Position numbers and translations under genes: made by a program. This document shows positions 39,714-49,944 of a stretch of 62,018 nt of DNA, piece after piece. The notes below the pieces were generated by a model that was not told the DNA's origin, made no database searches, and saw only the letters and a program-made list of their open reading frames with translations. Origin of the DNA: Ignavibacteria bacterium. GTDB taxonomy: Bacteria > Bacteroidota > Ignavibacteria > Kapaibacteriales > UBA2268. How positions within the stretch are numbered: the first letter of the stretch is position 1; each line of letters opens with the position of its first letter. The DNA lies in assembly GCA_026415495.1 (NCBI GenBank), contig JAOAGZ010000003.1:1-62018 (forward strand), in the 5' to 3' direction.

Positions 39714-42002
39714 TTAAACAGAAACTTTAATGCCAGCATAAACTGTCCTCGGACGAGATGGACCATACAAATAACCCGAATCTCGATTTTTCCCGGTATC
39801 TAAATCTTTTTGAAATGCATCAAAAATATTATACACACCTATATATAAATTGGTTAGAGGAAATATAGAATAATTTAATTTCGCTCCTAATTCAAAAAAT
39901 TGAGGTGTTTTTTTCAACTTATCTTGTTCTATATACCCTGCATAATGAGGAATATACATTGAACCTGTATAAATTCCCGAAAATGACACATTTATTTGTT
40001 GTGAAAAATTAATGTTCGAGACAAAATTTCCATAGATATTTGGCGATTTGAATAATTTACTAGAATACTGTGGTAAAATACCGTTATCGATATCACCAGC
40101 AGACCATTCTATTTTCCTGTTATATAATCCTTGCTGAAAAGTTAAGCTTGAGCGAAAATCAAAATATTTTGAAATTTCTGTTTGAACTTCAAAAGTAATA
40201 CCATTAATTGTTGCAGTTCCATCATTAATCCTCATAAAAACCAAGTTGTTGTTATCATCTTTTCCTAAGTCTTTTAAAACAAAAACATCATTTAATTTTG
40301 TTAGAAATACTTCGATAGAAAAGGCAAATGGAAAATTGAACAAACGAGTAGAATAATCGACGGATGAGGAAAACGAAACAGAATATTCTGGTTGTAAGTT
40401 GTCATCAACAAGAATAAGTAGTGATTCCCCTCCTACTTGAGTAATATGCAAATCCTCATCAAAGGCTTGTGGCGGACGGTAACCTTTTGAAATACTTGTT
40501 CTCCAATTCAAAGAATTAGAAACCTTGCATAAAACATTCAGACGCGGAGAAATAATCAGATTATCAATTTTATTATGTTTCTCAAAACGAATACCAACAA
40601 CAGCATTGAGCCATTCAGTGAAATTCCAATCATCTTGAACAAATATTCCATTGGAAAAAGTAGTTTGGTCAATCCTTCTTCCGTATGCAGGAGCGTGATC
40701 GAGCATCCAATCATAATGATATTCATATCCAGTGGTTAGCATATGGTAACCCAGAAAGTTATTTATTAAATGGTCATATTGAACTCCAAAACCAAAAGTT
40801 TGGTTATCAGTAGTACCATAAGCATTTGGATTATGCCCTGAGCCATAGTAACTTTCTCTTTTAGTATTTTGATAACCCAAATTGACAGTAATTTTATTTA
40901 ATTCGTTGCTGATATATCGTTCATATTTAAATGTTGTAAAACTAGAATTATGAGAAGCTTTTTCAGTAATGTTAGTTTGATGAGGAGGATTACTTATTGA
41001 GTCTCCACCGCGAATAGTATGAAATATGGCTTGATAGCCCAAACTAAGTTTAGTTTTATGGTCTGGTCTAAAAAATGAACGAATACCAAAAGTTTTAACG
41101 TTTAATTTACCAATGTCAGAGAAACCGTCATTATTTTCATCCCAATTACTTCTATCTCGCTGAAAACCGTACACATAAGCACCTATTCTATTGTCTTCGG
41201 AAACTATACTACCATTAAAATTCAGAGAGTAATCAGGATATTTATTGCGCATAAATGATTGGAATAAATCAATATTAAAGTTATTTGAGTATGGCTCTTT
41301 TGAAATAATATTAATAATGCCAGCCACAGCATTACCACCATAAAGAGATGAGCCACCGCGAATAACTTCAATTCTATCAATCATATTTGAAGGCATTTGC
41401 TCAAGTCCATAAACTCCATTCAACGATGAAAAAATTGGATTTCCATCAATCAAAATTTGTGAATATCGCCCATCAAGTCCGTTAATTCTTACTTGACTAA
41501 ATCCACAGTTTTGGCAATTAATTTCTGTTCTTAGTCCAGGTTGAAAATTTAATCCATCACGAATATCAACAGAACTGGTAGCTTGAAATGTTTTATTGCT
41601 TATGACAGACACTTTTACAGGCACTTCCTCGTATATTTTCTCCGAACGAGTAGCTGTAATTACAACATCAGCTGTTTTAATTGAAGATTCCTCCATTTCA
41701 AAATTAAGTTGCAAATTCTCTTTTAGTTCTTTATCAATCGAAAACTTATAATGAATGGGTTTGAGCCCAACACCAGTAATAACAAGTTCGTAATTTCCTT
41801 TTGGAATACCTTTAATATGAAATGCACCATTTTTATTTGTAACAGCTCCGAGTGAGGTATTTAATATTCGAACTGTTGCGCCTATAACTGGTTTTGCCTC
41901 ACCATTTTTGTAAACAACAACACCTTCTATACAGTTTTCGTGAGCAAAAATATCAATTACCAATAAGAAGCAGAATAAAACAAAAACAAATACTTTAAAC
42001 AT
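39714..42002 (-). CDS. TonB-dependent receptor with N-terminal carboxypeptidase-regulatory-like domain
   Basis: It has a signal peptide, a CarbopepD_reg-like domain (GVVVYKNGEAKPVIGATVRI..NGAFHIKGIPKGNYELV), a plug (IEVIRGGSSLYGGNAVAGIINI) and a long barrel. I placed the start at the ATG at 42000-42002, preceded by GGAGGA; the track starts at an upstream TTG. Confidence 0.85.
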   Translation of the reverse strand: MFKVFVFVLFCFLLVIDIFAHENCIEGVVVYKNGEAKPVIGATVRILNTSLGAVTNKNGAFHIKGIPKGNYELVITGVGLKPIHYKFSIDKELKENLQLNFEMEESSIKTADVVITATRSEKIYEEVPVKVSVISNKTFQATSSVDIRDGLNFQPGLRTEINCQNCGFSQVRINGLDGRYSQILIDGNPIFSSLNGVYGLEQMPSNMIDRIEVIRGGSSLYGGNAVAGIINIISKEPYSNNFNIDLFQSFMRNKYPDYSLNFNGSIVSEDNRIGAYVYGFQRDRSNWDENNDGFSDIGKLNVKTFGIRSFFRPDHKTKLSLGYQAIFHTIRGGDSISNPPHQTNITEKASHNSSFTTFKYERYISNELNKITVNLGYQNTKRESYYGSGHNPNAYGTTDNQTFGFGVQYDHLINNFLGYHMLTTGYEYHYDWMLDHAPAYGRRIDQTTFSNGIFVQDDWNFTEWLNAVVGIRFEKHNKIDNLIISPRLNVLCKVSNSLNWRTSISKGYRPPQAFDEDLHITQVGGESLLILVDDNLQPEYSVSFSSSVDYSTRLFNFPFAFSIEVFLTKLNDVFVLKDLGKDDNNNLVFMRINDGTATINGITFEVQTEISKYFDFRSSLTFQQGLYNRKIEWSAGDIDNGILPQYSSKLFKSPNIYGNFVSNINFSQQINVSFSGIYTGSMYIPHYAGYIEQDKLKKTPQFFELGAKLNYSIFPLTNLYIGVYNIFDAFQKDLDTGKNRDSGYLYGPSRPRTVYAGIKVSV

Positions 42003-42985
42003 AATATCCTCCAATTTTCAATTAAAAAATTTTCAAAAACAAACATTAGTTACACCTAATTTCAAATTTAACTCAATTAAAATTTTTATCAAATTAATTA
42101 ATAAATTTTTATCGAGATTTATTGATTAAATGAGATTTACTTAAAACGAAAATGAATTAATAAAACATAGTTAATTAACACTATATTATTTAAATTAATC
42201 CCTATTCATATATGGCTTGCAATGAAATTATTTCAAAGCTGGCAAGTAATATTTCTATCAGAAGTATTGGAAATAATGATCAGTGCAAAATAGTGGGTAA
42301 ATATTATTTAAAAAAAGCATATATTACAATAATAACAAATAGTGGATTTAACTCTAGATGCTCTTGAGTATAAAATAATAATATACAGAATAAAAAATTA
42401 TTAACCTATCTTGCGTGAAAGGTTACTTTGTCTAATAAAAATCGCCATAAAAAGGTTTTAAAAAGATTGTATAATTAAAAATTGAAATGTAAATAAGACA
42501 AAGAGAGATTCTACATAACAAGATAAAAACACTATTGTTAAACGTCAGAAAAATTTTAATAGTTTCATTGAAAAAATATGCAACAAACAAATTCAAATAA
42601 AACATTCAGCACATAAACAGTTTGAATAAAAATAAAAATAAATTAATACTATATTTTTAATATATTTAAGATATAACATTTAGGAAAAGAAACAATACAA
42701 AAGATTAGCCTTTTTCACGGAATGATTCAACTGATATTTATATCGTTTTTTAACTTAGTTTAAGTCTATTAAGTTAAACAAGTAAGGTTGCAAGATGTAA
42801 AAGTTTATGAGCCTAAACGACAAAAACGAAGATAAATTAGCTGAAAATACAACTGGACTTTTCGTTCAAAAACATAGAAATAATACAAGACATAGAAGTC
42901 TTTGAAATAGAACAACCCTACCGAATGTTTCCCAAAAAACAGTCATCCGATGAATAAAACAATCAAACCGATTATTTAATCTGCC

Positions 42986-43183
42986 TTACCAAGCTATATC
43001 ATCTATCTCTTTCTGTGTTATCCTTAGCTTCTTGCGTAAATCATTACGTTCTTCCTCGGTGATCAATCCCCATTCAAACGCCATATGTATTCTTCCTAAA
43101 TAATAACAGCTTGTGTTTGTGTTCCACTCGTGCTCCTCTACCGAGTTCAACATATCCTTCAAAACTTCATACACCCTACTCAT
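42986..43183 (-). CDS. Hypothetical small protein in the phage-derived fragment
   Basis: 65 aa. Its ATG is preceded by AAGGTGAAG, and it lies 10 nt after the stop of an upstream 45-codon ORF. No family recognised. Confidence 0.4.
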   Translation of the reverse strand: MSRVYEVLKDMLNSVEEHEWNTNTSCYYLGRIHMAFEWGLITEEERNDLRKKLRITQKEIDDIAW

Positions 43184-43192
43184 AACTTCACC

Positions 43193-43330
43193 TTATAATT
43201 TTTTAAACATATTTGTTTGTTTTTTATAAATATACACTTCTTTCCCTACATTCTCTCTCATCCAAGTCTCCGCTTTTGCAAACGCTTTCTCTTCGTTTAT
43301 TAAATCTCTTTCCAACTCAAATATAAACAC
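43193..43330 (-). CDS. Possible 45-codon ORF (GTG start) coupled to the 65-aa ORF
   Basis: Own translation: VFIFELERDLINEEKAFAKAETWMRENVGKEVYIYKKQTNMFKKL*. It is below the track cutoff, and its only support is the tight coupling. Confidence 0.2.
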   Translation of the reverse strand: MFIFELERDLINEEKAFAKAETWMRENVGKEVYIYKKQTNMFKKL

Positions 43331-43341
43331 ATTAAAAATAC

Positions 43342-43369
43342 CTTCGGAAGGTTCTCAACCCTTCCGAAG
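43342..43369 (-). terminator. Hairpin 1 of three stacked hairpins; terminator-like on the minus strand
   Basis: CTTCGGAAGG-(8 nt)-CCTTCCGAAG is a perfect 10-bp stem followed on the minus strand by GTATTTTTAAT. Confidence 0.6.
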
Positions 43370-43380
43370 CCTCCCATCCT

Positions 43381-43413
43381 AAATGGGCTCCACCTCCCAG
43401 GTGGAGCCCATTT
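43381..43413. repeat. Hairpin 2: perfect 15-bp inverted repeat with a 3-nt loop
   Basis: AAATGGGCTCCACCT-CCC-AGGTGGAGCCCATTT. Confidence 0.85.
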
Positions 43414-43420
43414 TCACCTA

Positions 43421-43453
43421 ATTCATCGGATGACTCTCAGTCATCCGATGAAT
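43421..43453. repeat. Hairpin 3: perfect 15-bp inverted repeat with a 3-nt loop, built from two copies of the palindrome TCATC[C/G]GATGA
   Basis: ATTCATCGGATGACT-CTC-AGTCATCCGATGAAT. Confidence 0.85.
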
Positions 43454-43487
43454 GATTCCTCCAACAAAATTCAATCTTTTTCAATAC

Positions 43488-43760
43488 TCAATCTTTCTGC
43501 CCTCCCGTTTTGTTTTTCAACAAAATATCTAAATCTTCCTTAAACTCTTCTGCAATCATAGGAACTCGAAAAGCCGGATTTGTTTCGATTATTTCTCTTG
43601 CTTTTTCGATTGTTTCCCTGCTCAACGGTAGGTAATCTTCTAAATCATACAGCAAGTCTCTTAAATACAAAGTGTTTATATTGTCCTCTCCGTTTTGAAT
43701 CTCCAAGGTTTCGAGCAGCTCTTTTTCGTATTCTTCCTTTGTCATTTTATCTTCCTCCAT
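43488..43760 (-). CDS. Putative immunity/antitoxin protein for the upstream toxin domain (acidic, 90 aa)
   Basis: It overlaps the toxin-like ORF by 19 nt and is strongly acidic (MEEDKMTKEEYEKELLETLE..). The assignment rests on position and charge only. Confidence 0.35.
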   Translation of the reverse strand: MEEDKMTKEEYEKELLETLEIQNGEDNINTLYLRDLLYDLEDYLPLSRETIEKAREIIETNPAFRVPMIAEEFKEDLDILLKNKTGGQKD

Positions 43761-44278
43761 TTTTTTGTTGTTTTATTCTTTCTATTTTCAATCATTTTTT
43801 CAATATTCGATTCGCCGTGATAATAATAGCCTCTTATTTTTCCAAATCGATCAACAACCACGTAGCCGTTTTCACCGATGTAATTGTATTGCGTTTCTCC
43901 TAAATAAGTATGTTTATAAATTTGTTTCGCATTCTTTACTACTCGTTTTGCTTCCTCTATATACTCATCAGGTGATAAACCGAATTTTTTTGCATGTTTA
44001 GCAACATCCTGCCTTTTGTCCTTTTCGTTATAAATAAGTTCAATTTCTTGCAGCTTTTTAGCAATAGATCCATCCTCCGCCACCGCCACCCACCTGTGCC
44101 TGCAATTCCACCCTCCGCAAAAATATTCCACCGCCAAATCCTGCCCGTTGTCCATCCCACGTATCTCCTCTATCGAATACACCTTCCCAACCCGCTCCCG
44201 ACAAAATGGACGTGCTCCCGCTACCGCCCCTACATAACGAAAATATCTCGCCTCCGATTCCAAAGCCCTCTCCATCAT
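43742..44278 (-). CDS. 5-prime-truncated MuF/SPP1-gp7-family protein: C-terminal end of the MuF domain fused to a putative nuclease-type toxin domain
   Basis: 178 aa. ARPFCRERVGKVYSIEEI..GGWNCRHRWVAV resembles the C-terminal Cys/His motif of the Phage_Mu_F domain (..C..l.G......PP.H.NCRC). The usual ~200-300 aa N-terminal part is missing: there is an in-frame TAA two codons upstream, at the compositional boundary. The C-terminal ~100 aa (AKHAKKFGLSPDEYIEEAKRVV..GYVVVDRFGKIRGYYY) is a separate small domain. Confidence 0.5.
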   Translation of the reverse strand: MMERALESEARYFRYVGAVAGARPFCRERVGKVYSIEEIRGMDNGQDLAVEYFCGGWNCRHRWVAVAEDGSIAKKLQEIELIYNEKDKRQDVAKHAKKFGLSPDEYIEEAKRVVKNAKQIYKHTYLGETQYNYIGENGYVVVDRFGKIRGYYYHGESNIEKMIENRKNKTTKKWRKIK

Positions 44279-44310
44279 CAGAGATTAATTTAAATTATAA
44301 CTAAATTGAA

Positions 44311-45192
44311 TTAATAGTTCTCGTCATATAGTGGTAGAGCATAAATAAAATTAATTCTAAAGCCAATATTTGAATTATAGATTTTTTGAGATTCAATAAA
44401 CTTTGTGAAAAAATAAACATATCTAAGCCCGATACCTGTTGAAAAATTTTTAGACCATTCAGTTTGTAAAAATTTATATGCATTCCAATTAATATTACAA
44501 TTCAAATTAACTCCGACAAAGAACTTGTTTAAACCGTCAAAATTGTTGTAGGTTTTACTTTGAAAGTCTCGTCCATTATCATATGTATAACCTTTGGGTT
44601 CGACAATTGAGAGAGTTTGTTTATAGTTATGATCTACAACATAACCAAAAATTGGACCAATAGAAAAATAGTATTGTGGAGCAAAATAATTTATAAAATA
44701 ATTTAATGAATGGTGAGGAGAACCTAACTCAATATTGAAACTCCAATAAATTGATGTATACTCAATTTGAATTTTATTTTTCTCTACAAGATTTTTTATT
44801 TCGCCATTATAATATACTTTTCGATTCGGTTCAATATTTGACCCAATCAAACTGTTATTATTTACACTTATATTACTCGACAAGTTATAGGATAAAGAGT
44901 CGAATAATGGGAAGTTTTTAATATTATGGAAAAAAGCTTTAGCATAAATTTCAAAACTTGTTCCATAATCAACATCATTAAAGTCTAATGGATTGCAGCA
45001 AATATTGTTTTTATTTACTGGTTCATATTTGCCGGTGGTAATATTAATGTTTGGAACAAATCCCAAACCTATATAAACTCTTGGTGTTGTTTTTTCACTA
45101 TTTGTATTAATAGATGAATATAACCGAGTGTGAAAAATAAAGAGTATTATGATTAAGGAAATTATAGGTTGCCATTTTTTCATATCGATCAT
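44311..45192 (-). CDS. Hypothetical outer-membrane beta-barrel-like protein
   Basis: 293 aa with a signal-like N-terminus, an alternating Tyr/Asn/Gly-rich strand pattern and a C-terminal ..LPLYDENY. It abuts the upstream gene (the two share nt 45192). Confidence 0.45.
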   Translation of the reverse strand: MIDMKKWQPIISLIIILFIFHTRLYSSINTNSEKTTPRVYIGLGFVPNINITTGKYEPVNKNNICCNPLDFNDVDYGTSFEIYAKAFFHNIKNFPLFDSLSYNLSSNISVNNNSLIGSNIEPNRKVYYNGEIKNLVEKNKIQIEYTSIYWSFNIELGSPHHSLNYFINYFAPQYYFSIGPIFGYVVDHNYKQTLSIVEPKGYTYDNGRDFQSKTYNNFDGLNKFFVGVNLNCNINWNAYKFLQTEWSKNFSTGIGLRYVYFFTKFIESQKIYNSNIGFRINFIYALPLYDENY

Positions 45193-47561
45193 TACCTCTT
45201 TATAAATTTGTGAAAACTTAAATTAATACCATCACTTATTTTTAATAGGTAAACCCCAGGTAGTAAATTAGCAACATTTAGAGTGTATTCATTAATTCCG
45301 CTATTAACATTATTATTATTTGTTTTTATTAGTGGTACACCACGATAATCAATGATTTCGAAGTTTAATTTCGATTCATATTTTGATAATATGTTAAATG
45401 ATATTATTGTTTCACTTGGGTTTGGATAAAAATCAATAATACTAAAATAATTATCGAATATTAAACTGTTTGTCAGTGGACATTTGGACTGAGCTGATAT
45501 TTTAATAGGCTTTATTTCAAATTCCTTCATATATCTACTTTTATTACCTATTAATAGTTTGCCTGATAAAGTTGATTTATTGTCATAACCAGCCAAAACA
45601 ATTCCACTAATATTAATTAATAACGAGTCAGTAAAAGCAATTTTGTCTGAATAACCCTCTAACTCTATTAATCCCTTATCGATCTTACGAACACTAAATC
45701 TATCAAATTTGCCTTTATTGTTTTCTAAGATGTTTTCTAAAAGCGGGAAAAACAATTTATAATCATAATTAATATAAAATGCAAATTTATTAGCATATAG
45801 AAAATCAATATCATCATACATTATATCTAAGTTTATCGTGTCATTATAAAATGCATCGGTTAATTCTGTATTACCTGTTGAACTACTAAATTTTATATAT
45901 TCTTTATATTTTCTGGGTAATCTTGCATCACCATCGCAAAAACTTGAAGGACCTGGGTCACATAGATATAAATGCCAATCTCCTTCACCGGCATTTATCG
46001 CAAATTCATAAATTGTGTGTTCATAGTCAATTTTTGGTGATTTCCCGAAGCCGTATTTACCGTCCTCTACAATCGAAGTATCATTGCTTACATCAACTCC
46101 ATTTTTATATACTATAGGCTTCTTTTTATTGTCGTTATAAACATAAATCCCCCAGTGCTCTTTTCCATTTGCTGTAAATAATTCAAATAAATTATAGCAG
46201 TTTTGTTTGTCTGGTTCTTCGTACCCAATTTTCCAATCATTTAATATATATAATTTACCAGAGCAATATTCAGCATAAAGATTTGAAAACATACCTTCTG
46301 CAGGTTCAGAATTCATCCACTCATCCAAGTAACCAGGTTCATTAGTGAACTTACCATCAATTTTGTGGTTATTTATACAGATATTTTTTATTCTCTTGTT
46401 GTCTTTGCTGGAGTAAATCGTTAATGTATCTTTTTTTAATGTACCTCCAAATGAATATGGTTCAGTTAACAAACCAGCTACACCGGATAACGGAATATAT
46501 CGTTTAGATATCTGCATTTCTGAGCCATTTTTATCTATGCTACCGACTATTATATTTGGTTCGGATATTGTACCGTATCCATCTTCATCACAATATAATG
46601 TAACACTTGGTTTAACTTCTATCATCCCTACTTCGTCTCTAAACAATCGCATTGTAAAAAGACCACCACTTGCTTTTACACCAAATTCCCACATTGTATG
46701 ATTAGAGTCGACAAGTAATGATTTGGCGTTACCGTATCTTCCTCCTAATACATAGTTAGTATCATTTGTAACGTCTTTACCGTTTAACGTTACTTTGATA
46801 CCTTTCGTAATTGAGTTGTATATTCTAATCTTCCAATTTTCAACTCCTCCAGCAGTTGAAAATTCGAATTCATTGAAACAAGTAAGTGAATCATAATTGC
46901 CATTTCCTAATTTCCAATCATTCATTATGTACAGTATTTTTGTTGTTGGGCAGTAATCCAAATATAGATTGGAAAATGTTCCTATTAACGGTGTTATTGT
47001 GGACCATTCCTTTGTTTTTCCATCACCAACTGAATCAGTAAAAATCCCATCAATTTTATGAAATTTATCACAATCTTCTATTTTGTTATTTGAGCTACCT
47101 CCCGGTTTGTTCTTCACTACTTCTCCTTTTGGAACAGGTGGCTTACCTTTGGAATAATCAACTTCTTTACCAAGATTGGTTCTTGGATCAGGATCATAAG
47201 GATTTATAGTATCAGACTTATTTGGCTTATTTTTTACTGAAAAATAAACTTCAGCACAATCTTCATATAATTTTTCATAAATAAAAATTTTGTGCCGCTC
47301 CTCTGTTAAGTAACTAGGCAGCCTGAAAGTCAATATTCTATCTCTTAACTCAAAAACAAATATTTGAATTGTGTCGTCGATAAATATATTGATATTTTCT
47401 GTCAATGGATAATTATTTATATGCTTAAGAACGATTCTTTCACCTGCATACAACGAATTTTCATTTTCAATTCTCAACTTGATTAAACACTCTGATTTTA
47501 GCACTTGCAAACTTGCAAACAATAAGATAATTACACTTGTTTTAATGAAATTGGAGAGCAT
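45192..47561 (-). CDS. Large secreted protein with a tandemly duplicated uncharacterised ~145-aa domain and a T9SS C-terminal sorting domain
   Basis: 789 aa with a signal peptide. Repeats at aa ~164-310 and ~395-536 share HKIDGxFT, EW, FSNLYxxYC, LYIxNDWKxG, CxNxFE, NGxDVxNDT and HTxxEF. The C-terminal IDFYPNPSETIISFNI..GVYLLKISDGINLSFHKFIKR is a T9SS CTD. Confidence 0.7.
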   Translation of the reverse strand: MLSNFIKTSVIILLFASLQVLKSECLIKLRIENENSLYAGERIVLKHINNYPLTENINIFIDDTIQIFVFELRDRILTFRLPSYLTEERHKIFIYEKLYEDCAEVYFSVKNKPNKSDTINPYDPDPRTNLGKEVDYSKGKPPVPKGEVVKNKPGGSSNNKIEDCDKFHKIDGIFTDSVGDGKTKEWSTITPLIGTFSNLYLDYCPTTKILYIMNDWKLGNGNYDSLTCFNEFEFSTAGGVENWKIRIYNSITKGIKVTLNGKDVTNDTNYVLGGRYGNAKSLLVDSNHTMWEFGVKASGGLFTMRLFRDEVGMIEVKPSVTLYCDEDGYGTISEPNIIVGSIDKNGSEMQISKRYIPLSGVAGLLTEPYSFGGTLKKDTLTIYSSKDNKRIKNICINNHKIDGKFTNEPGYLDEWMNSEPAEGMFSNLYAEYCSGKLYILNDWKIGYEEPDKQNCYNLFELFTANGKEHWGIYVYNDNKKKPIVYKNGVDVSNDTSIVEDGKYGFGKSPKIDYEHTIYEFAINAGEGDWHLYLCDPGPSSFCDGDARLPRKYKEYIKFSSSTGNTELTDAFYNDTINLDIMYDDIDFLYANKFAFYINYDYKLFFPLLENILENNKGKFDRFSVRKIDKGLIELEGYSDKIAFTDSLLINISGIVLAGYDNKSTLSGKLLIGNKSRYMKEFEIKPIKISAQSKCPLTNSLIFDNYFSIIDFYPNPSETIISFNILSKYESKLNFEIIDYRGVPLIKTNNNNVNSGINEYTLNVANLLPGVYLLKISDGINLSFHKFIKR

Positions 47562-47565
47562 AATA

Positions 47566-49437
47566 TCACCTTAAAATTATTACTTTTTTTGTAGTAAACT
47601 GTTCGTTAATAAATAGCGTAAGGAAATATGTACCTGATTGCAAATTATTAATATCTATAGATTGATAGTATTTACCGGGCATTTCATGATAATCGGAATA
47701 CTCTTTTATTATATTACCGTTTATATCAGTCAATTTTATATTAATACGAGATTGTTTTGTTATTGAATATTCAAAATGAGTAATGTTTCGTGTTGGATTT
47801 GGATAAACATTAACGTCATCTAACGACTTAATTTCTAAGTTCTCTGGTTGAACAGATGTTATCTTGTAACAACTATCACAATTAAATGAAATTACTTTTG
47901 TAAGAAGTAATGTATCGGATGGCGAGAATAATAACCTTATATATTTTTGGGTTCCAACTGCGCAAGGATCAATGTTAAAATAGATAACACAACAAGCGTT
48001 ATCATCAATAGAATTTTTGAAATTAGAATATATTGAATCTAAACCTTTCTTATTATTAATGTAATTTACTTTACCAAAAGTGCTTCTGGCTATCGTTTCT
48101 ATTTGTCTTATACCGGTGCTGTCATTTTTACCGAATCCCAATGCTACTATATAAATTGGAATATTATTTGCTCTATTTTTAATTTCGTTTAATACCTCAT
48201 TGTTTAATTGAATGCTGTCACTTGGATATTTATCAGAAAAAGGAACAGTATTTGCACCATCGCTTAACACCAATAGATGTCTTACTCTTTGCTTGCTTTG
48301 ATTTATCTTGTCCAATGCAGCGATGATAGCTTTGAACAAAGCTGTTTTACCTGATAATGTGTCAAGTTCATCGATTGCTTTTGTCAATTTAGTTTTATCT
48401 TTTGTCCAGTCTTGATTTAGAATTACTTCTGTAGCAAAACTCATTAAAAATGTTGAGTCTAATTCTGTTAAACTTGATACAAATTTTTTTAATGCTGTCT
48501 TAGTTGCATCTATTCTTTTTGTTAAATCACCCGGCTGAATGTTTAAATCCATACTGGGTGAAACATCTACCAACAACCCAGTAGACATACCTTCTGTATT
48601 GTCACAATTTATTTCTACATCACATTTAAACACACCATTCTCTATTACACTTATTTGAGATGGGTTAATACTTTTTAAAATATTTTTGAAGCCTGTTGGA
48701 TTATTAGTATCCTGGACAAATATCTTTGACCATACTCTTAACCCTGCTAAAACGTTATTAGAATCGCATATTGCTTCTACGTTGCATATGTCAACTACAG
48801 GTTGATTCTCTGCCTTCTCTTCAATTTTGATTTTTAAAAAACCACAATTATCCTCATATCTTGGTATGATGCTTTCTAATAATACATTATAATTGGAATC
48901 TAATATCTGAAATTTGAAGGGTTCCCCTGTCCCTTTTTTCTCAATTGAATATGTATGATTTAACCTGTTAATCCCAACATTTGGCAACGGTTCACCGTTA
49001 ATTCTAAAGCCTGTATATCTTCTTAAACTTAGACTAAATTCTGGAACAGCAATTTCTCTCGGAGGTACTTCAAATAATTGAGGATCTCCAACCCATTTTG
49101 GCATAACAAAAAATGGGAATTTTACTCCAAATAATACTACTGTATCTGGTGGCCATCTCCAGTTGTCCATTTCAGCTTTAGGCACATCATATACATAAGC
49201 AGCATCTACCCCATAGCATTCATTACTGCCTTCCCGCGGCCACATCGAATAAGTTCCTTCCACTGTAATTATGTATGTCTTCGATGTATCAGTAGTTTGA
49301 GATAAGACAATACTTCCATTTGATGGTAATTGAAGATATTGGATTTTTGATGCCTGAATGTTATAAGAAAATAATATTAAAGTGAAACAAAAAAATAAAA
49401 TTCGAAACATAATTTCCCCCGTGGTTTGAAAAATCAT
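47566..49437 (-). CDS. von Willebrand factor A domain protein with T9SS C-terminal sorting domain
   Basis: 623 aa with a vWA MIDAS motif (LLVDVSPSM ... SGKTA ... LVLSDGAN). The C-terminal VNVYPNPTRNITHFEYSI..SGTYFLTLFINEQFTTKKVIILR is a T9SS CTD. The likely true start is the ATG at 49408-49410 (MFRILFFCFTLILF). Confidence 0.75.
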   Translation of the reverse strand: MIFQTTGEIMFRILFFCFTLILFSYNIQASKIQYLQLPSNGSIVLSQTTDTSKTYIITVEGTYSMWPREGSNECYGVDAAYVYDVPKAEMDNWRWPPDTVVLFGVKFPFFVMPKWVGDPQLFEVPPREIAVPEFSLSLRRYTGFRINGEPLPNVGINRLNHTYSIEKKGTGEPFKFQILDSNYNVLLESIIPRYEDNCGFLKIKIEEKAENQPVVDICNVEAICDSNNVLAGLRVWSKIFVQDTNNPTGFKNILKSINPSQISVIENGVFKCDVEINCDNTEGMSTGLLVDVSPSMDLNIQPGDLTKRIDATKTALKKFVSSLTELDSTFLMSFATEVILNQDWTKDKTKLTKAIDELDTLSGKTALFKAIIAALDKINQSKQRVRHLLVLSDGANTVPFSDKYPSDSIQLNNEVLNEIKNRANNIPIYIVALGFGKNDSTGIRQIETIARSTFGKVNYINNKKGLDSIYSNFKNSIDDNACCVIYFNIDPCAVGTQKYIRLLFSPSDTLLLTKVISFNCDSCYKITSVQPENLEIKSLDDVNVYPNPTRNITHFEYSITKQSRINIKLTDINGNIIKEYSDYHEMPGKYYQSIDINNLQSGTYFLTLFINEQFTTKKVIILR

Positions 49438-49768
49438 ATAATAATTTTTTGATGGTTTAGATTACACACTATTGCTAATATAATATTTTTTCAGTTTGAA
49501 TACAATATTTTTCTGATTATTTGATTTATTAATAATAAATGAAAAATTTTGATTCTTTTCATTAATAATAAGGTCAGTTAATGAGGATTTGTTTTACTTT
49601 TTTCTGAGTATGTCTATGCTATAGATATTTTTGTGTGGATAATTAAAATAACTAAAATCTGTGGCTGAGAATTCGAAGTTCACAATTAAAGCGTTCGATA
49701 GAATTATGATATCAAAAAATATAATATTCTTCAAAAAAATTCGGATGTTTTCCCTTCCAAAAAAATTC

Positions 49769-49793
49769 ATCCGATGACTGGAAGTCATCGGAT
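49769..49793. repeat. Hairpin built on the same TCATC[C/G]GATGA palindrome, upstream of the T9SS operon
   Basis: ATCCGATGACT-GGA-AGTCATCGGAT is a perfect 11-bp stem with a 3-nt loop. It has the same arm sequence as hairpin 3 except that the central C:G pair is flipped. Confidence 0.8.
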
Positions 49794-49944
49794 AAATTAC
49801 TCTAACTATCAATGTAACGTTTTGTAAGTATTTTATGCAAATTTTTACTATATTGTAAAGATTGATTAATTAATTTTTCTATTATTTGAAAATAGATAAT
49901 GGAAACATTTTATTCAAATATATTCTATTATTTGGAGAGGTAAT

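Follow-up and report, generated by a model that had tools for sequence, protein, structure and literature searches.

The locus considered here is a block of 1.35 kb (42940-44285) within a 62,018-nt stretch of DNA from an Ignavibacteria bacterium (contig JAOAGZ010000003.1 of assembly GCA_026415495.1), which is referred to in its full length as the window. The block comprises four open reading frames (ORFs A to D), all of them on the minus strand, and three stacked hairpins (Table 1). A sequence-only reading, made without database searches, had described it as a phage-derived fragment carrying a truncated polymorphic toxin of the MuF type and a putative immunity gene. The two genes on which this description was built, a larger ORF containing the quoted motifs (ORF A) and a smaller one overlapping its end (ORF B), are both present in the ORF list. 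Two further small ORFs (C and D) and the hairpins lie within the same coordinates and had been left uninterpreted.

Table 1. Features of the block, with related hairpin blocks at other loci (positions refer to the window unless a contig or locus is named).
Feature	Position	Strand	Description
ORF A	43742-44278	-	178 aa, isoelectric point (pI) 9.3; MuF end (residues 1-65) and toxin tip (residues 66-178)
MuF remnant within ORF A	44084-44278	-	last ~65 residues of a ~205-aa mini-MuF domain; GC 0.549
Toxin tip within ORF A	43742-44083	-	113 aa; predicted BECR-fold (colicin D/E5-like) ribonuclease (RNase)
ORF B	43488-43760	-	90 aa, pI 4.33; putative cognate immunity protein; 19-nt overlap with ORF A
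Three stacked perfect hairpins	43342-43453	.	43342-43369, 43381-43413 and 43421-43453; cassette boundary element
ORF C	43193-43330	-	45 aa; stump of a second, CdiA_C-type tip (C-terminal ~44 residues)
ORF D	42986-43183	-	65 aa, pI 5.05; immunity gene of the CdiA_C-type cassette
Distal island end	42922-42955	.	half copy of the third hairpin
Hairpin blocks, own genome (G000)	C113: 323-742, 1727-1829, 4023-4113; C53: 362-460; C68; C79: 21877-30161; C80: 35409-35495		
Hairpin blocks, locus L001	9122-9153, 10409-10513, 10963-11021		

The N-terminal part of ORF A showed a real, though weak similarity to MuF proteins. The model PF06152 (Phage_min_cap2), which corresponds to 'MuF2' of Jamet et al. 2017 (PMC5576092), matches residues 15-90 over positions 223-299 of its 366 profile positions with an E-value of 4.2e-5 and 23.1 bits, which lies under the cut-off of 26.3 bits. 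The same residues are matched by phrog_581 'minor head protein' (E 1.6e-5). Compared to the domain models, the similarity becomes far clearer via close relatives with longer MuF parts, which are 73-94% identical over the MuF part, share its end ('...CRERVGKVYS..GGWNCRHRWVA') and then diverge abruptly into other C-termini. Relatives with this MuF end run 70-140 residues further in the N-terminal direction, up to a full form of 342 aa, which was found in a genome of the same genus (42% identity) and in a metagenome-assembled genome (MAG) labelled uncultured Chloroherpeton (60%). Furthermore, tip-less 'short MuF' proteins of 200-210 aa stop exactly at CRHRW.PV, the point where the tips diverge. 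As the sequence-only reading had proposed, ORF A keeps only the C-terminal end of the domain, with ~65 residues left compared to ~205 residues before the tip in the full relatives. The DNA homology to longer MuF-toxin genes starts at the ATG of ORF A, coinciding with the change in composition, and comprises 197 nt of 87% identity to such a gene of the same species (blastn, L001 8189-8384 against 44279-44084). The in-frame stop that had been noted two codons upstream was found as a TAA at 44285-44287, with the codons TCT and CTG between it and the first ATG. This first cassette has thus lost ~140 N-terminal MuF residues.

For the remaining part of ORF A (residues 66-178, in the following called the tip), an exhaustive HMMER search with a threshold of E ≤ 1e-3 yielded 38 cluster representatives, in nearly all of which the domain lies at the extreme C-terminus of proteins of 250-470 aa. 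Where the N-termini of these proteins are recognisable, nearly all of them are MuF (PF04233 or PF06152); several match no family, and the distant match P0046 contains unrelated, non-delivery domains. Stand-alone tip proteins of 84-157 aa were also observed (P0014, P0018, P0022, P0024, P0044 and P0047). In the tip alignment D22, D26, H30 and Q65 are nearly invariant (tip numbering, to which 65 is added for ORF A), while the K29-H30 pair, I83-R84-G85 and H89 are further conserved. The corresponding residues of ORF A are D87, D91, K94-H95, Q130, I148-R149 and H154, and every conserved polar residue is present. When the tip region of P0011 was used in a word-indexed search, P0011 alone was returned.

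While a single-sequence AlphaFold2 model of ORF A was unusable (pLDDT 44.7), the model of the tip based on a 35-sequence alignment reached a pLDDT of 94.2 and a pTM of 0.87. It comprises three helices, a sheet of four strands and a further helix at the C-terminus, in line with the compact alpha/beta fold of BECR toxins, where a helix packs on four antiparallel strands (helices 20-34 and 38-51; strands 55-60, 63-69, 73-78 and 82-88). The helix that precedes the core carries the KH pair; R84 and H89 are located on strand 4 or behind it. In a Foldseek comparison with the PDB, ranks 1-11 were all BECR RNase toxins with probabilities of 0.47-0.99, led by 3ao9 (sequence-specific ribonuclease, 0.99) and 8ey4 (toxin of contact-dependent inhibition, CDI; 0.94) and followed by five colicin E5 entries and colicin D entries, while RelE ranked lower. 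The TM-scores to BECR structures were 0.4-0.6 at sequence identities of 16-22%. In the viral library of Foldseek, 'minor capsid protein', 'Colicin D' and 'Gp35' were matched. The Pfam matches of the tip family, all of them sub-threshold, belong to one clan: Colicin_D with an E-value of 0.16 for the tip of the window and 0.021 for the best member, as well as PBECR3 (0.023) and PBECR2 (0.054) in single members. At the level of sequence, searching PDB chains with ORF A gave nothing meaningful, and the tip profile gave nothing. The fold bears out the guess of the sequence-only reading that the C-terminal domain is toxin-like. We predict that the tip, which is basic (pI 9.5), acts as a metal-independent, colicin D/E5-like (BECR) RNase whose substrate is probably tRNA or another stable RNA. 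Jamet et al. 2017 require a toxin-domain extension of at least 100 aa, and the tip comprises 113 aa with a confidently predicted BECR RNase-like fold. A tblastn search with the tip against 50,697 deposited phage genomes gave no match; only the MuF part of the tip relatives matches annotated 'head morphogenesis' proteins there. The tip is therefore not a routine part of head-morphogenesis proteins, a possibility which had been named as a refutation of the toxin reading.

The tip gene is followed by ORF B, which comprises 25 D+E compared to 12 K+R and was already proposed as a small, very acidic immunity gene. An overlapping ORF of 82-99 aa with a pI of 4.05-4.53 was found directly after the tip gene in 6/6 related loci, and a short N.AF[KR] motif is common to ORF B and these syntenic downstream ORFs. 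With its size ORF B also fits the small downstream ORF (<150 aa) that accompanies MuF toxins according to Jamet et al. 2017. A homolog of ORF B was detected in the representative library in the form of the N-terminal 60 residues of P0034 (168 aa, E 2e-15), where an ORF-B-like domain continues in frame into a tip-like domain with DH in place of the KH motif. In the P0034 alignment the C-terminus of ORF B (AEEFKEDL) aligns with the first tip motif. P0034 may represent the fusion of an immunity gene with a degenerate orphan tip that followed it. We infer that ORF B binds and blocks the tip of ORF A.

The two remaining ORFs can be assigned to a second cassette. ORF C is identical in 35 of its 45 residues to the C-terminus of a full MuF-CdiA_C toxin in locus L002 (P0010, from a MAG labelled Bacteroidota) and in 33/45 to a remnant in locus L001, while ORF D shares 60/65 residues with the 65-aa ORF directly after the full L002 toxin and 54/65 with its counterpart in L001. 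Compared to PF18451, P0010 reaches 22.4 bits and lies below the cut-off, whereas the sister toxins P0004, P0005 and P0008 lie above it. Since ORF C retains only the last ~44 residues of a CdiA_C domain, these identities lead to the assignment of C as a dead stump and of D as an intact immunity gene. The same pair of C and D remnants closes the array in L001, and 43420-42944 is 84% identical to this part of L001.

As had been proposed, the MuF end belongs to a polymorphic family. The same mini-MuF N-terminus is fused in other proteins to CdiA_C (PF18451), to ADP-ribosyltransferase (ART, PF01129), to HExxH and to other, uncharacterised tips. In L001, which is assigned to the same species because its flank is 99.5% identical to contig C142 of the window genome, the C and D remnant is preceded by two long MuF-toxin genes, both accompanied by an immunity gene of their own, and these longer genes lie between a tRNA-synthetase gene and a flavodiiron gene. 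The window genome itself contains a canonical array beside the flavodiiron gene, which is split over the contigs C142 and C53. Another 5'-truncated copy is located on C113. It starts at the same internal Met, and downstream of it come an immunity gene, hairpins and two genes resembling a restriction-modification (R-M) system (a 361-aa ORF and a 281-aa ORF with Dam-like methylase motifs, assigned by motif only). The C113 orphan and the remnant in L002 share an identical 5' junction, in which AGTTAAGTT[A/G]TTTT is followed by AACACAATACGG; therefore the orphan unit has a defined, copied boundary. The copy in the window is cut ~30 nt further in. Its unique part (tip and ORF B, ~660 nt) is flanked by homology to the arrays on both sides, 197 nt (87%) and ~480 nt (84%), which is the geometry that cassette exchange would require. 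The hairpin block between the two cassettes recurs after immunity genes on C113, on C53 and in L001. Its hairpin at 43342-43369 is terminator-like, with the T-run on the minus strand, and represents the sole terminator-like site of the region. The distal end of the island carries CAGTCATCCGATGAAT (42940-42955), which repeats 43438-43453 in direct orientation and lies inside a ~35-nt repeat which is also present at 49741-49777; an 11-mer at this end occurs four times compared to 0.02 expected occurrences.

Relatives in other genomes point to the phage origin of these genes. In locus L022 the tip or mini-MuF lies within a classical portal-MuF-protease-capsid module, and the loci L023-L025, L034-L036 and L043 are Mu-like elements with Portal_Mu, Mu Gam, ParB and a terminase-sized gene. 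L020/L021 represent a non-phage setting beside restriction-modification genes. A scan of viral contigs with the 342-aa relative gave no confirmed match, and a PF04860 portal was not found in the genus. MuF toxins have been described as single genes and defined by their position immediately downstream of the portal gene in prophages, mostly of Firmicutes (PMC5576092). The Mu-like placement departs from this portal-adjacent rule: in L023, L024, L025, L034, L035, L036 and L043 the portal gene is not immediately followed by the mini-MuF (toxin) gene. The latter closes an operon of the early type (Gam, ParB, DnaA_C-like, a small zinc-ribbon ORF), in most of these loci convergent with the portal-terminase genes. 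As a side observation, an ORF of 382 aa whose N-terminus resembles Cas9 (RuvC-I motif DIGSNSIG), and which is possibly truncated, was found directly upstream of the MuF-toxin array of L014 (G002:C43, 58-1206).

Based on these data, the block is probably an orphan array of two toxin-tip/immunity cassettes whose ancestor was the MuF toxin carried by a temperate, Mu-like phage. The MuF domain is packaged into the phage capsid and ejected with the DNA (PMC5576092, PMC5512222). Full-length genes of the family encode a mini-MuF head domain of ~205 aa and an exchangeable toxic tip, and a small immunity gene follows. In the first cassette of the window the MuF N-terminus has been lost, and the intact tip would act as an RNase with ORF B as its inhibitor; beyond the triple-hairpin boundary, the second cassette consists of the dead CdiA_C-type stump and the intact immunity ORF D. 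Since ORF A is left without the packaging part of MuF, its delivery to other cells is unlikely. Two present-day roles seem the most likely: ORFs B and D would protect the cell from both toxin types arriving from related phages or kin, and the 197-nt MuF homology together with the ~480-nt downstream homology would let the cassette recombine with the longer arrays of the genome, which would swap the tips.

A number of observations weigh against this interpretation. For the tip, no curated Pfam model reaches its cut-off, and the E-values of the fold search are modest (best 0.035). The designation of ORF B as cognate immunity protein draws on position, size and charge; a hidden Markov model (HMM) built from five syntenic downstream ORFs without B retrieves ORF B at an E-value of 0.84 (rank 4 of 13,380 genome ORFs). 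Since this homology is not significant, conserved synteny rather than homology is claimed for these ORFs. In contrast to classical orphans, no full-length toxin gene is present upstream at this locus, where the block follows unrelated T9SS-cargo genes (type IX secretion system). No empty insertion site was found in relatives, and the synteny comparison does not delimit the limits of the insertion. Finally, ORF A has retained an intact frame, an ATG and all conserved residues, which fits a still-functional intracellular toxin as well.

The last point leads to the main alternative, according to which ORFs A and B form a working intracellular module of the toxin-antitoxin type (addiction or abortive infection) with ORF B as labile antitoxin. 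ORF A would be translated from its own ATG, and the pair would either stabilise the island or kill the cell on phage attack. Besides the intact frame, the 19-nt overlap of A and B suggests translational coupling, and two copies that were truncated separately, one in the window and one on C113, share the internal Met at which they begin. The stand-alone tip proteins also agree with such a module, although these may be orphan fragments themselves. In addition, the same hairpin blocks bound cassettes of the defence type, namely the R-M-like pair on C113 (by motif only) and the AIPR and HNH/methylase genes on C79. On the other hand, no PADLOC defence model matched A, B, D or the 342-aa relative, and no convincing promoter was found, the promoter-like sites being fewer than in shuffled sequence. 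A leftover piece of MuF and a dead second cassette would be expected from the decay of an array and not from a dedicated toxin-antitoxin module. Taking both sides together, we regard such a module as rather unlikely.

Less support remains for the explanation that the C-terminal domain is a phage effector or an RNA-binding part of MuF, comparable to the 'MuF-C' PBECR domain of gp30 in phage Mu and used for host take-over or counter-defence, with ORF B as a phage accessory protein and the block as a functionless scrap of a decaying prophage. It is in line with this explanation that all relatives with a recognisable phage N-terminal domain have MuF and none Rhs, CdiA or LXG. Iyer et al. 2017 (PMC5512222) proposed that MuF-PBECR fusions are injected as effectors against host RNA and noted that Mu contains an inactive copy, and Jamet et al. 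2017 (PMC5576092) left the role of uncharacterised C-terminal MuF extensions open. However, the conserved polar residues, which are intact in ORF A, argue for catalysis, and the tip fills the exact slot that is occupied by bona fide toxin domains (CdiA_C, ART) in sister proteins. In 6/6 loci the tip gene has a small acidic ORF behind it, and the cassette is kept and copied outside a phage in at least two loci of the genome and in an independent assembly. This explanation is thus considered improbable.

With respect to composition, the sequence-only reading of a GC-richer block applies to the comparison with the flanks, since the island (42940-44285) shows a GC content of 0.386 compared to 0.224 and 0.268 in the flanking DNA. 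It does not apply to the block as a uniform unit: the composition is heterogeneous, and the island reaches only the 77th percentile of same-size windows of the genome (mean 0.356), so that it stands out because its flanks are very AT-rich. The MuF remnant (195 bp) is the sole true compositional outlier of the block (99.9th percentile). It is highly improbable that a GC-rich foreign fragment was joined to AT-rich flanks by chimeric assembly: although the composition changes sharply at ~44280 and the window genome is a MAG of 163 contigs with 5% contamination, in which related cassettes break the contigs C53 and C142, only the MuF remnant is compositionally extreme, and a separate assembly (GCA_030154545.1, contig L027) is collinear with 44506-39847 at 99.96% over 4,660 bases. 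Both junctions are reproduced in this independent assembly.

On its upstream side the block is preceded, not by a phage portal gene, but by a gene of 293 aa which follows T9SS-cargo genes. This gene ends at 44311, leaving the gap of 32 nt that had been noted before, and no terminator-like site was predicted in this gap. What had been called a T9SS operon consists of genes whose products carry Por_Secre_tail (T9SS sorting) domains; because of these domains the genes represent cargo and not secretion machinery. Among the annotated ORFs of 39714-49437 no phage, integrase or transposase gene was found, in agreement with the earlier description. For the 293-aa gene no ortholog was found in the genus. 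On the other side, a non-coding stretch (42015-42939, 925 nt, GC 0.22) of unusual length and AT-richness separates ORF D from the start of a gene for a TonB-dependent receptor. The synteny with the same-genus genome G004 stops ~130 nt upstream of this receptor gene (~42145). A ~35-nt direct repeat ending in the hairpin palindrome (42922-42953 and 49741-49795) brackets a segment of 6.85 kb, which contains the toxin cassettes and three upstream genes (two with T9SS sorting domains and the 293-aa gene). Based on the position of the synteny break, the whole 6.85-kb segment may be one accessory insertion.

The family of stacked perfect hairpins (arms ATTCATCGGATGACT, AAATGGGCTCCACCT and CCTTCGGAAGG) recurs at few loci (Table 1), and the 11-mer TCATCSGATGA occurs 17 times in the genome compared to roughly 0.9 expected occurrences. 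At these loci the hairpin blocks separate cassette-like accessory genes, namely toxin/immunity pairs and, on C113, the R-M-like pair (motif only), while the hairpin-bounded genes of C79 comprise an AIPR abortive infection (Abi) gene, an HNH and methylase pair and DUF1801 genes. The Rfam model ar14 matched 43339-43456 with 31 bits compared to a gathering score of 58.8, which was taken as a chance match on hairpin-rich DNA. Another observation concerns a compact Mu-like head cluster at C130:22375-28210 (L041 6376-12211), which comprises Portal_Mu (347 aa), a CHAP-domain protein, Mu Gp36 and a cement protein. The portal gene and two adjacent genes are present as single copies in 4/5 genomes of the genus, and the portal gene was also found in the fifth (G004). 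The identities to G000 are 93% (G001), 85% (G003) and 71% (G002) with conserved local synteny, which is comparable to the 88% (G003) and 66% (G002) of a TonB receptor gene. The cluster may be a vertically inherited, domesticated phage-like element. A more far-reaching idea, to which we assign little probability, would be that the hairpin blocks are not simply terminators but recombination sites which shuffle mobile cassettes (toxin/immunity, R-M, Abi) among 'conflict islands', in the manner of an integron without a recognisable integrase, and that the genus-conserved head cluster is a domesticated particle packaging full-length MuF toxins for phage-independent delivery.

Among the known systems, the MuF polymorphic toxins (PMC5576092) are characterised by the same order, in which a MuF-superfamily domain precedes a C-terminal toxin domain that varies and measures 100 aa or more, and an ORF of <150 aa comes next; nuclease tips are common there. 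In contrast to these toxins with their complete N-terminal MuF domain (PF04233, PF06152, MuF3 or MuF4), the MuF part in the window is cut to 65 residues and stands without phage genes in a host that encodes T9SS cargo, and cassettes of the window type occur in arrays that include orphan remnants; neither 'orphan' nor 'truncated' is used in the main text of Jamet et al. 2017 (PMC5576092). Iyer et al. 2017 (PMC5512222) described PBECR domains joined to MuF or to the portal protein, among them the MuF-C domain found in gp30 of phage Mu. What they share with the tip is the predicted RNase of BECR fold placed C-terminally in MuF, the conserved His of the N-terminal helix and the occurrence of solo versions, whereas the tip family stays under every PBECR Pfam cut-off (best E 0.023-0.054), has a conserved small ORF downstream and occurs here outside a phage. 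A MuF-fused colicin-like BECR domain with a conserved small downstream partner is also found in BECR-Tox3/DUF6883, which is often fused to Phage_Mu_F and was read together with the downstream DUF4926 as a toxin-immunity pair (bioRxiv 10.64898/2026.08.28.747851). Pfam scans with E-values up to 1 revealed neither DUF6883 in any member of the tip family nor DUF4926 in ORF B. The same preprint describes the active site of 'Colicin-like' BECR domains as a KH motif in the helix before the core together with residues of the last strand, and the KH motif and the R/H on strand 4 of the tip match this layout as predicted from sequence and model. The tip family looks like an uncurated family of predicted colicin-like RNases, separate from DUF6883.

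The best structural matches were obtained for the toxins of the pairs colicin D/ImmD and colicin E5/ImmE5 and for the BECR toxins of CdiA C-termini (1v74, 1tfo, 5znm, 2fhz, 2dfx, 8ey4 and 3ao9). As in the colicin pairs, a basic toxin of ~100 aa is accompanied by a small acidic, here putative, inhibitor encoded immediately downstream. Different from colicins and CdiA, the delivery domain of the family is a phage head protein and not a colicin translocation domain or a CdiA filament. With regard to the arrangement, the block resembles the orphan modules of CDI and Rhs systems. These are located downstream of cdiBAI or rhs and comprise a 5'-truncated toxin gene with a conserved piece and a variable tip, followed by an immunity gene; they are stacked in arrays, and their homology to the main gene permits a switching of tips. 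In the window, ORF A is likewise a 5'-truncated toxin gene with a conserved piece beside its tip (homology from the ATG, 197 nt at 87%), ORF B follows as a candidate immunity gene by synteny, size and charge, the second cassette has ORF D as the cognate one, and both the stacking and the homology to the main gene are present. The differences are that the parent is a phage MuF protein, that the array lies at another locus than the longer genes (C142/C53) and that triple hairpins serve as separators.

MuF toxins are known, and so are MuF-PBECR fusions and orphan arrays of toxin/immunity genes. Hairpin-bounded orphan MuF-toxin cassettes outside prophages, in a genome encoding T9SS cargo, appear to be new compared to the papers searched, and the same holds true for this uncurated tip family. 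With 38 sequence clusters, a confident model, a clear set of conserved residues and a syntenic candidate inhibitor, the family offers a ready pair for the biochemistry of RNA-targeting toxins. The block also provides a natural case for why bacteria retain immunity genes against phage-delivered toxins. Together with its relatives, it shows that a MuF toxin system can leave, and apparently propagate, truncated tip/immunity arrays outside the phage, a behaviour which drives the diversification of CDI and Rhs toxins.

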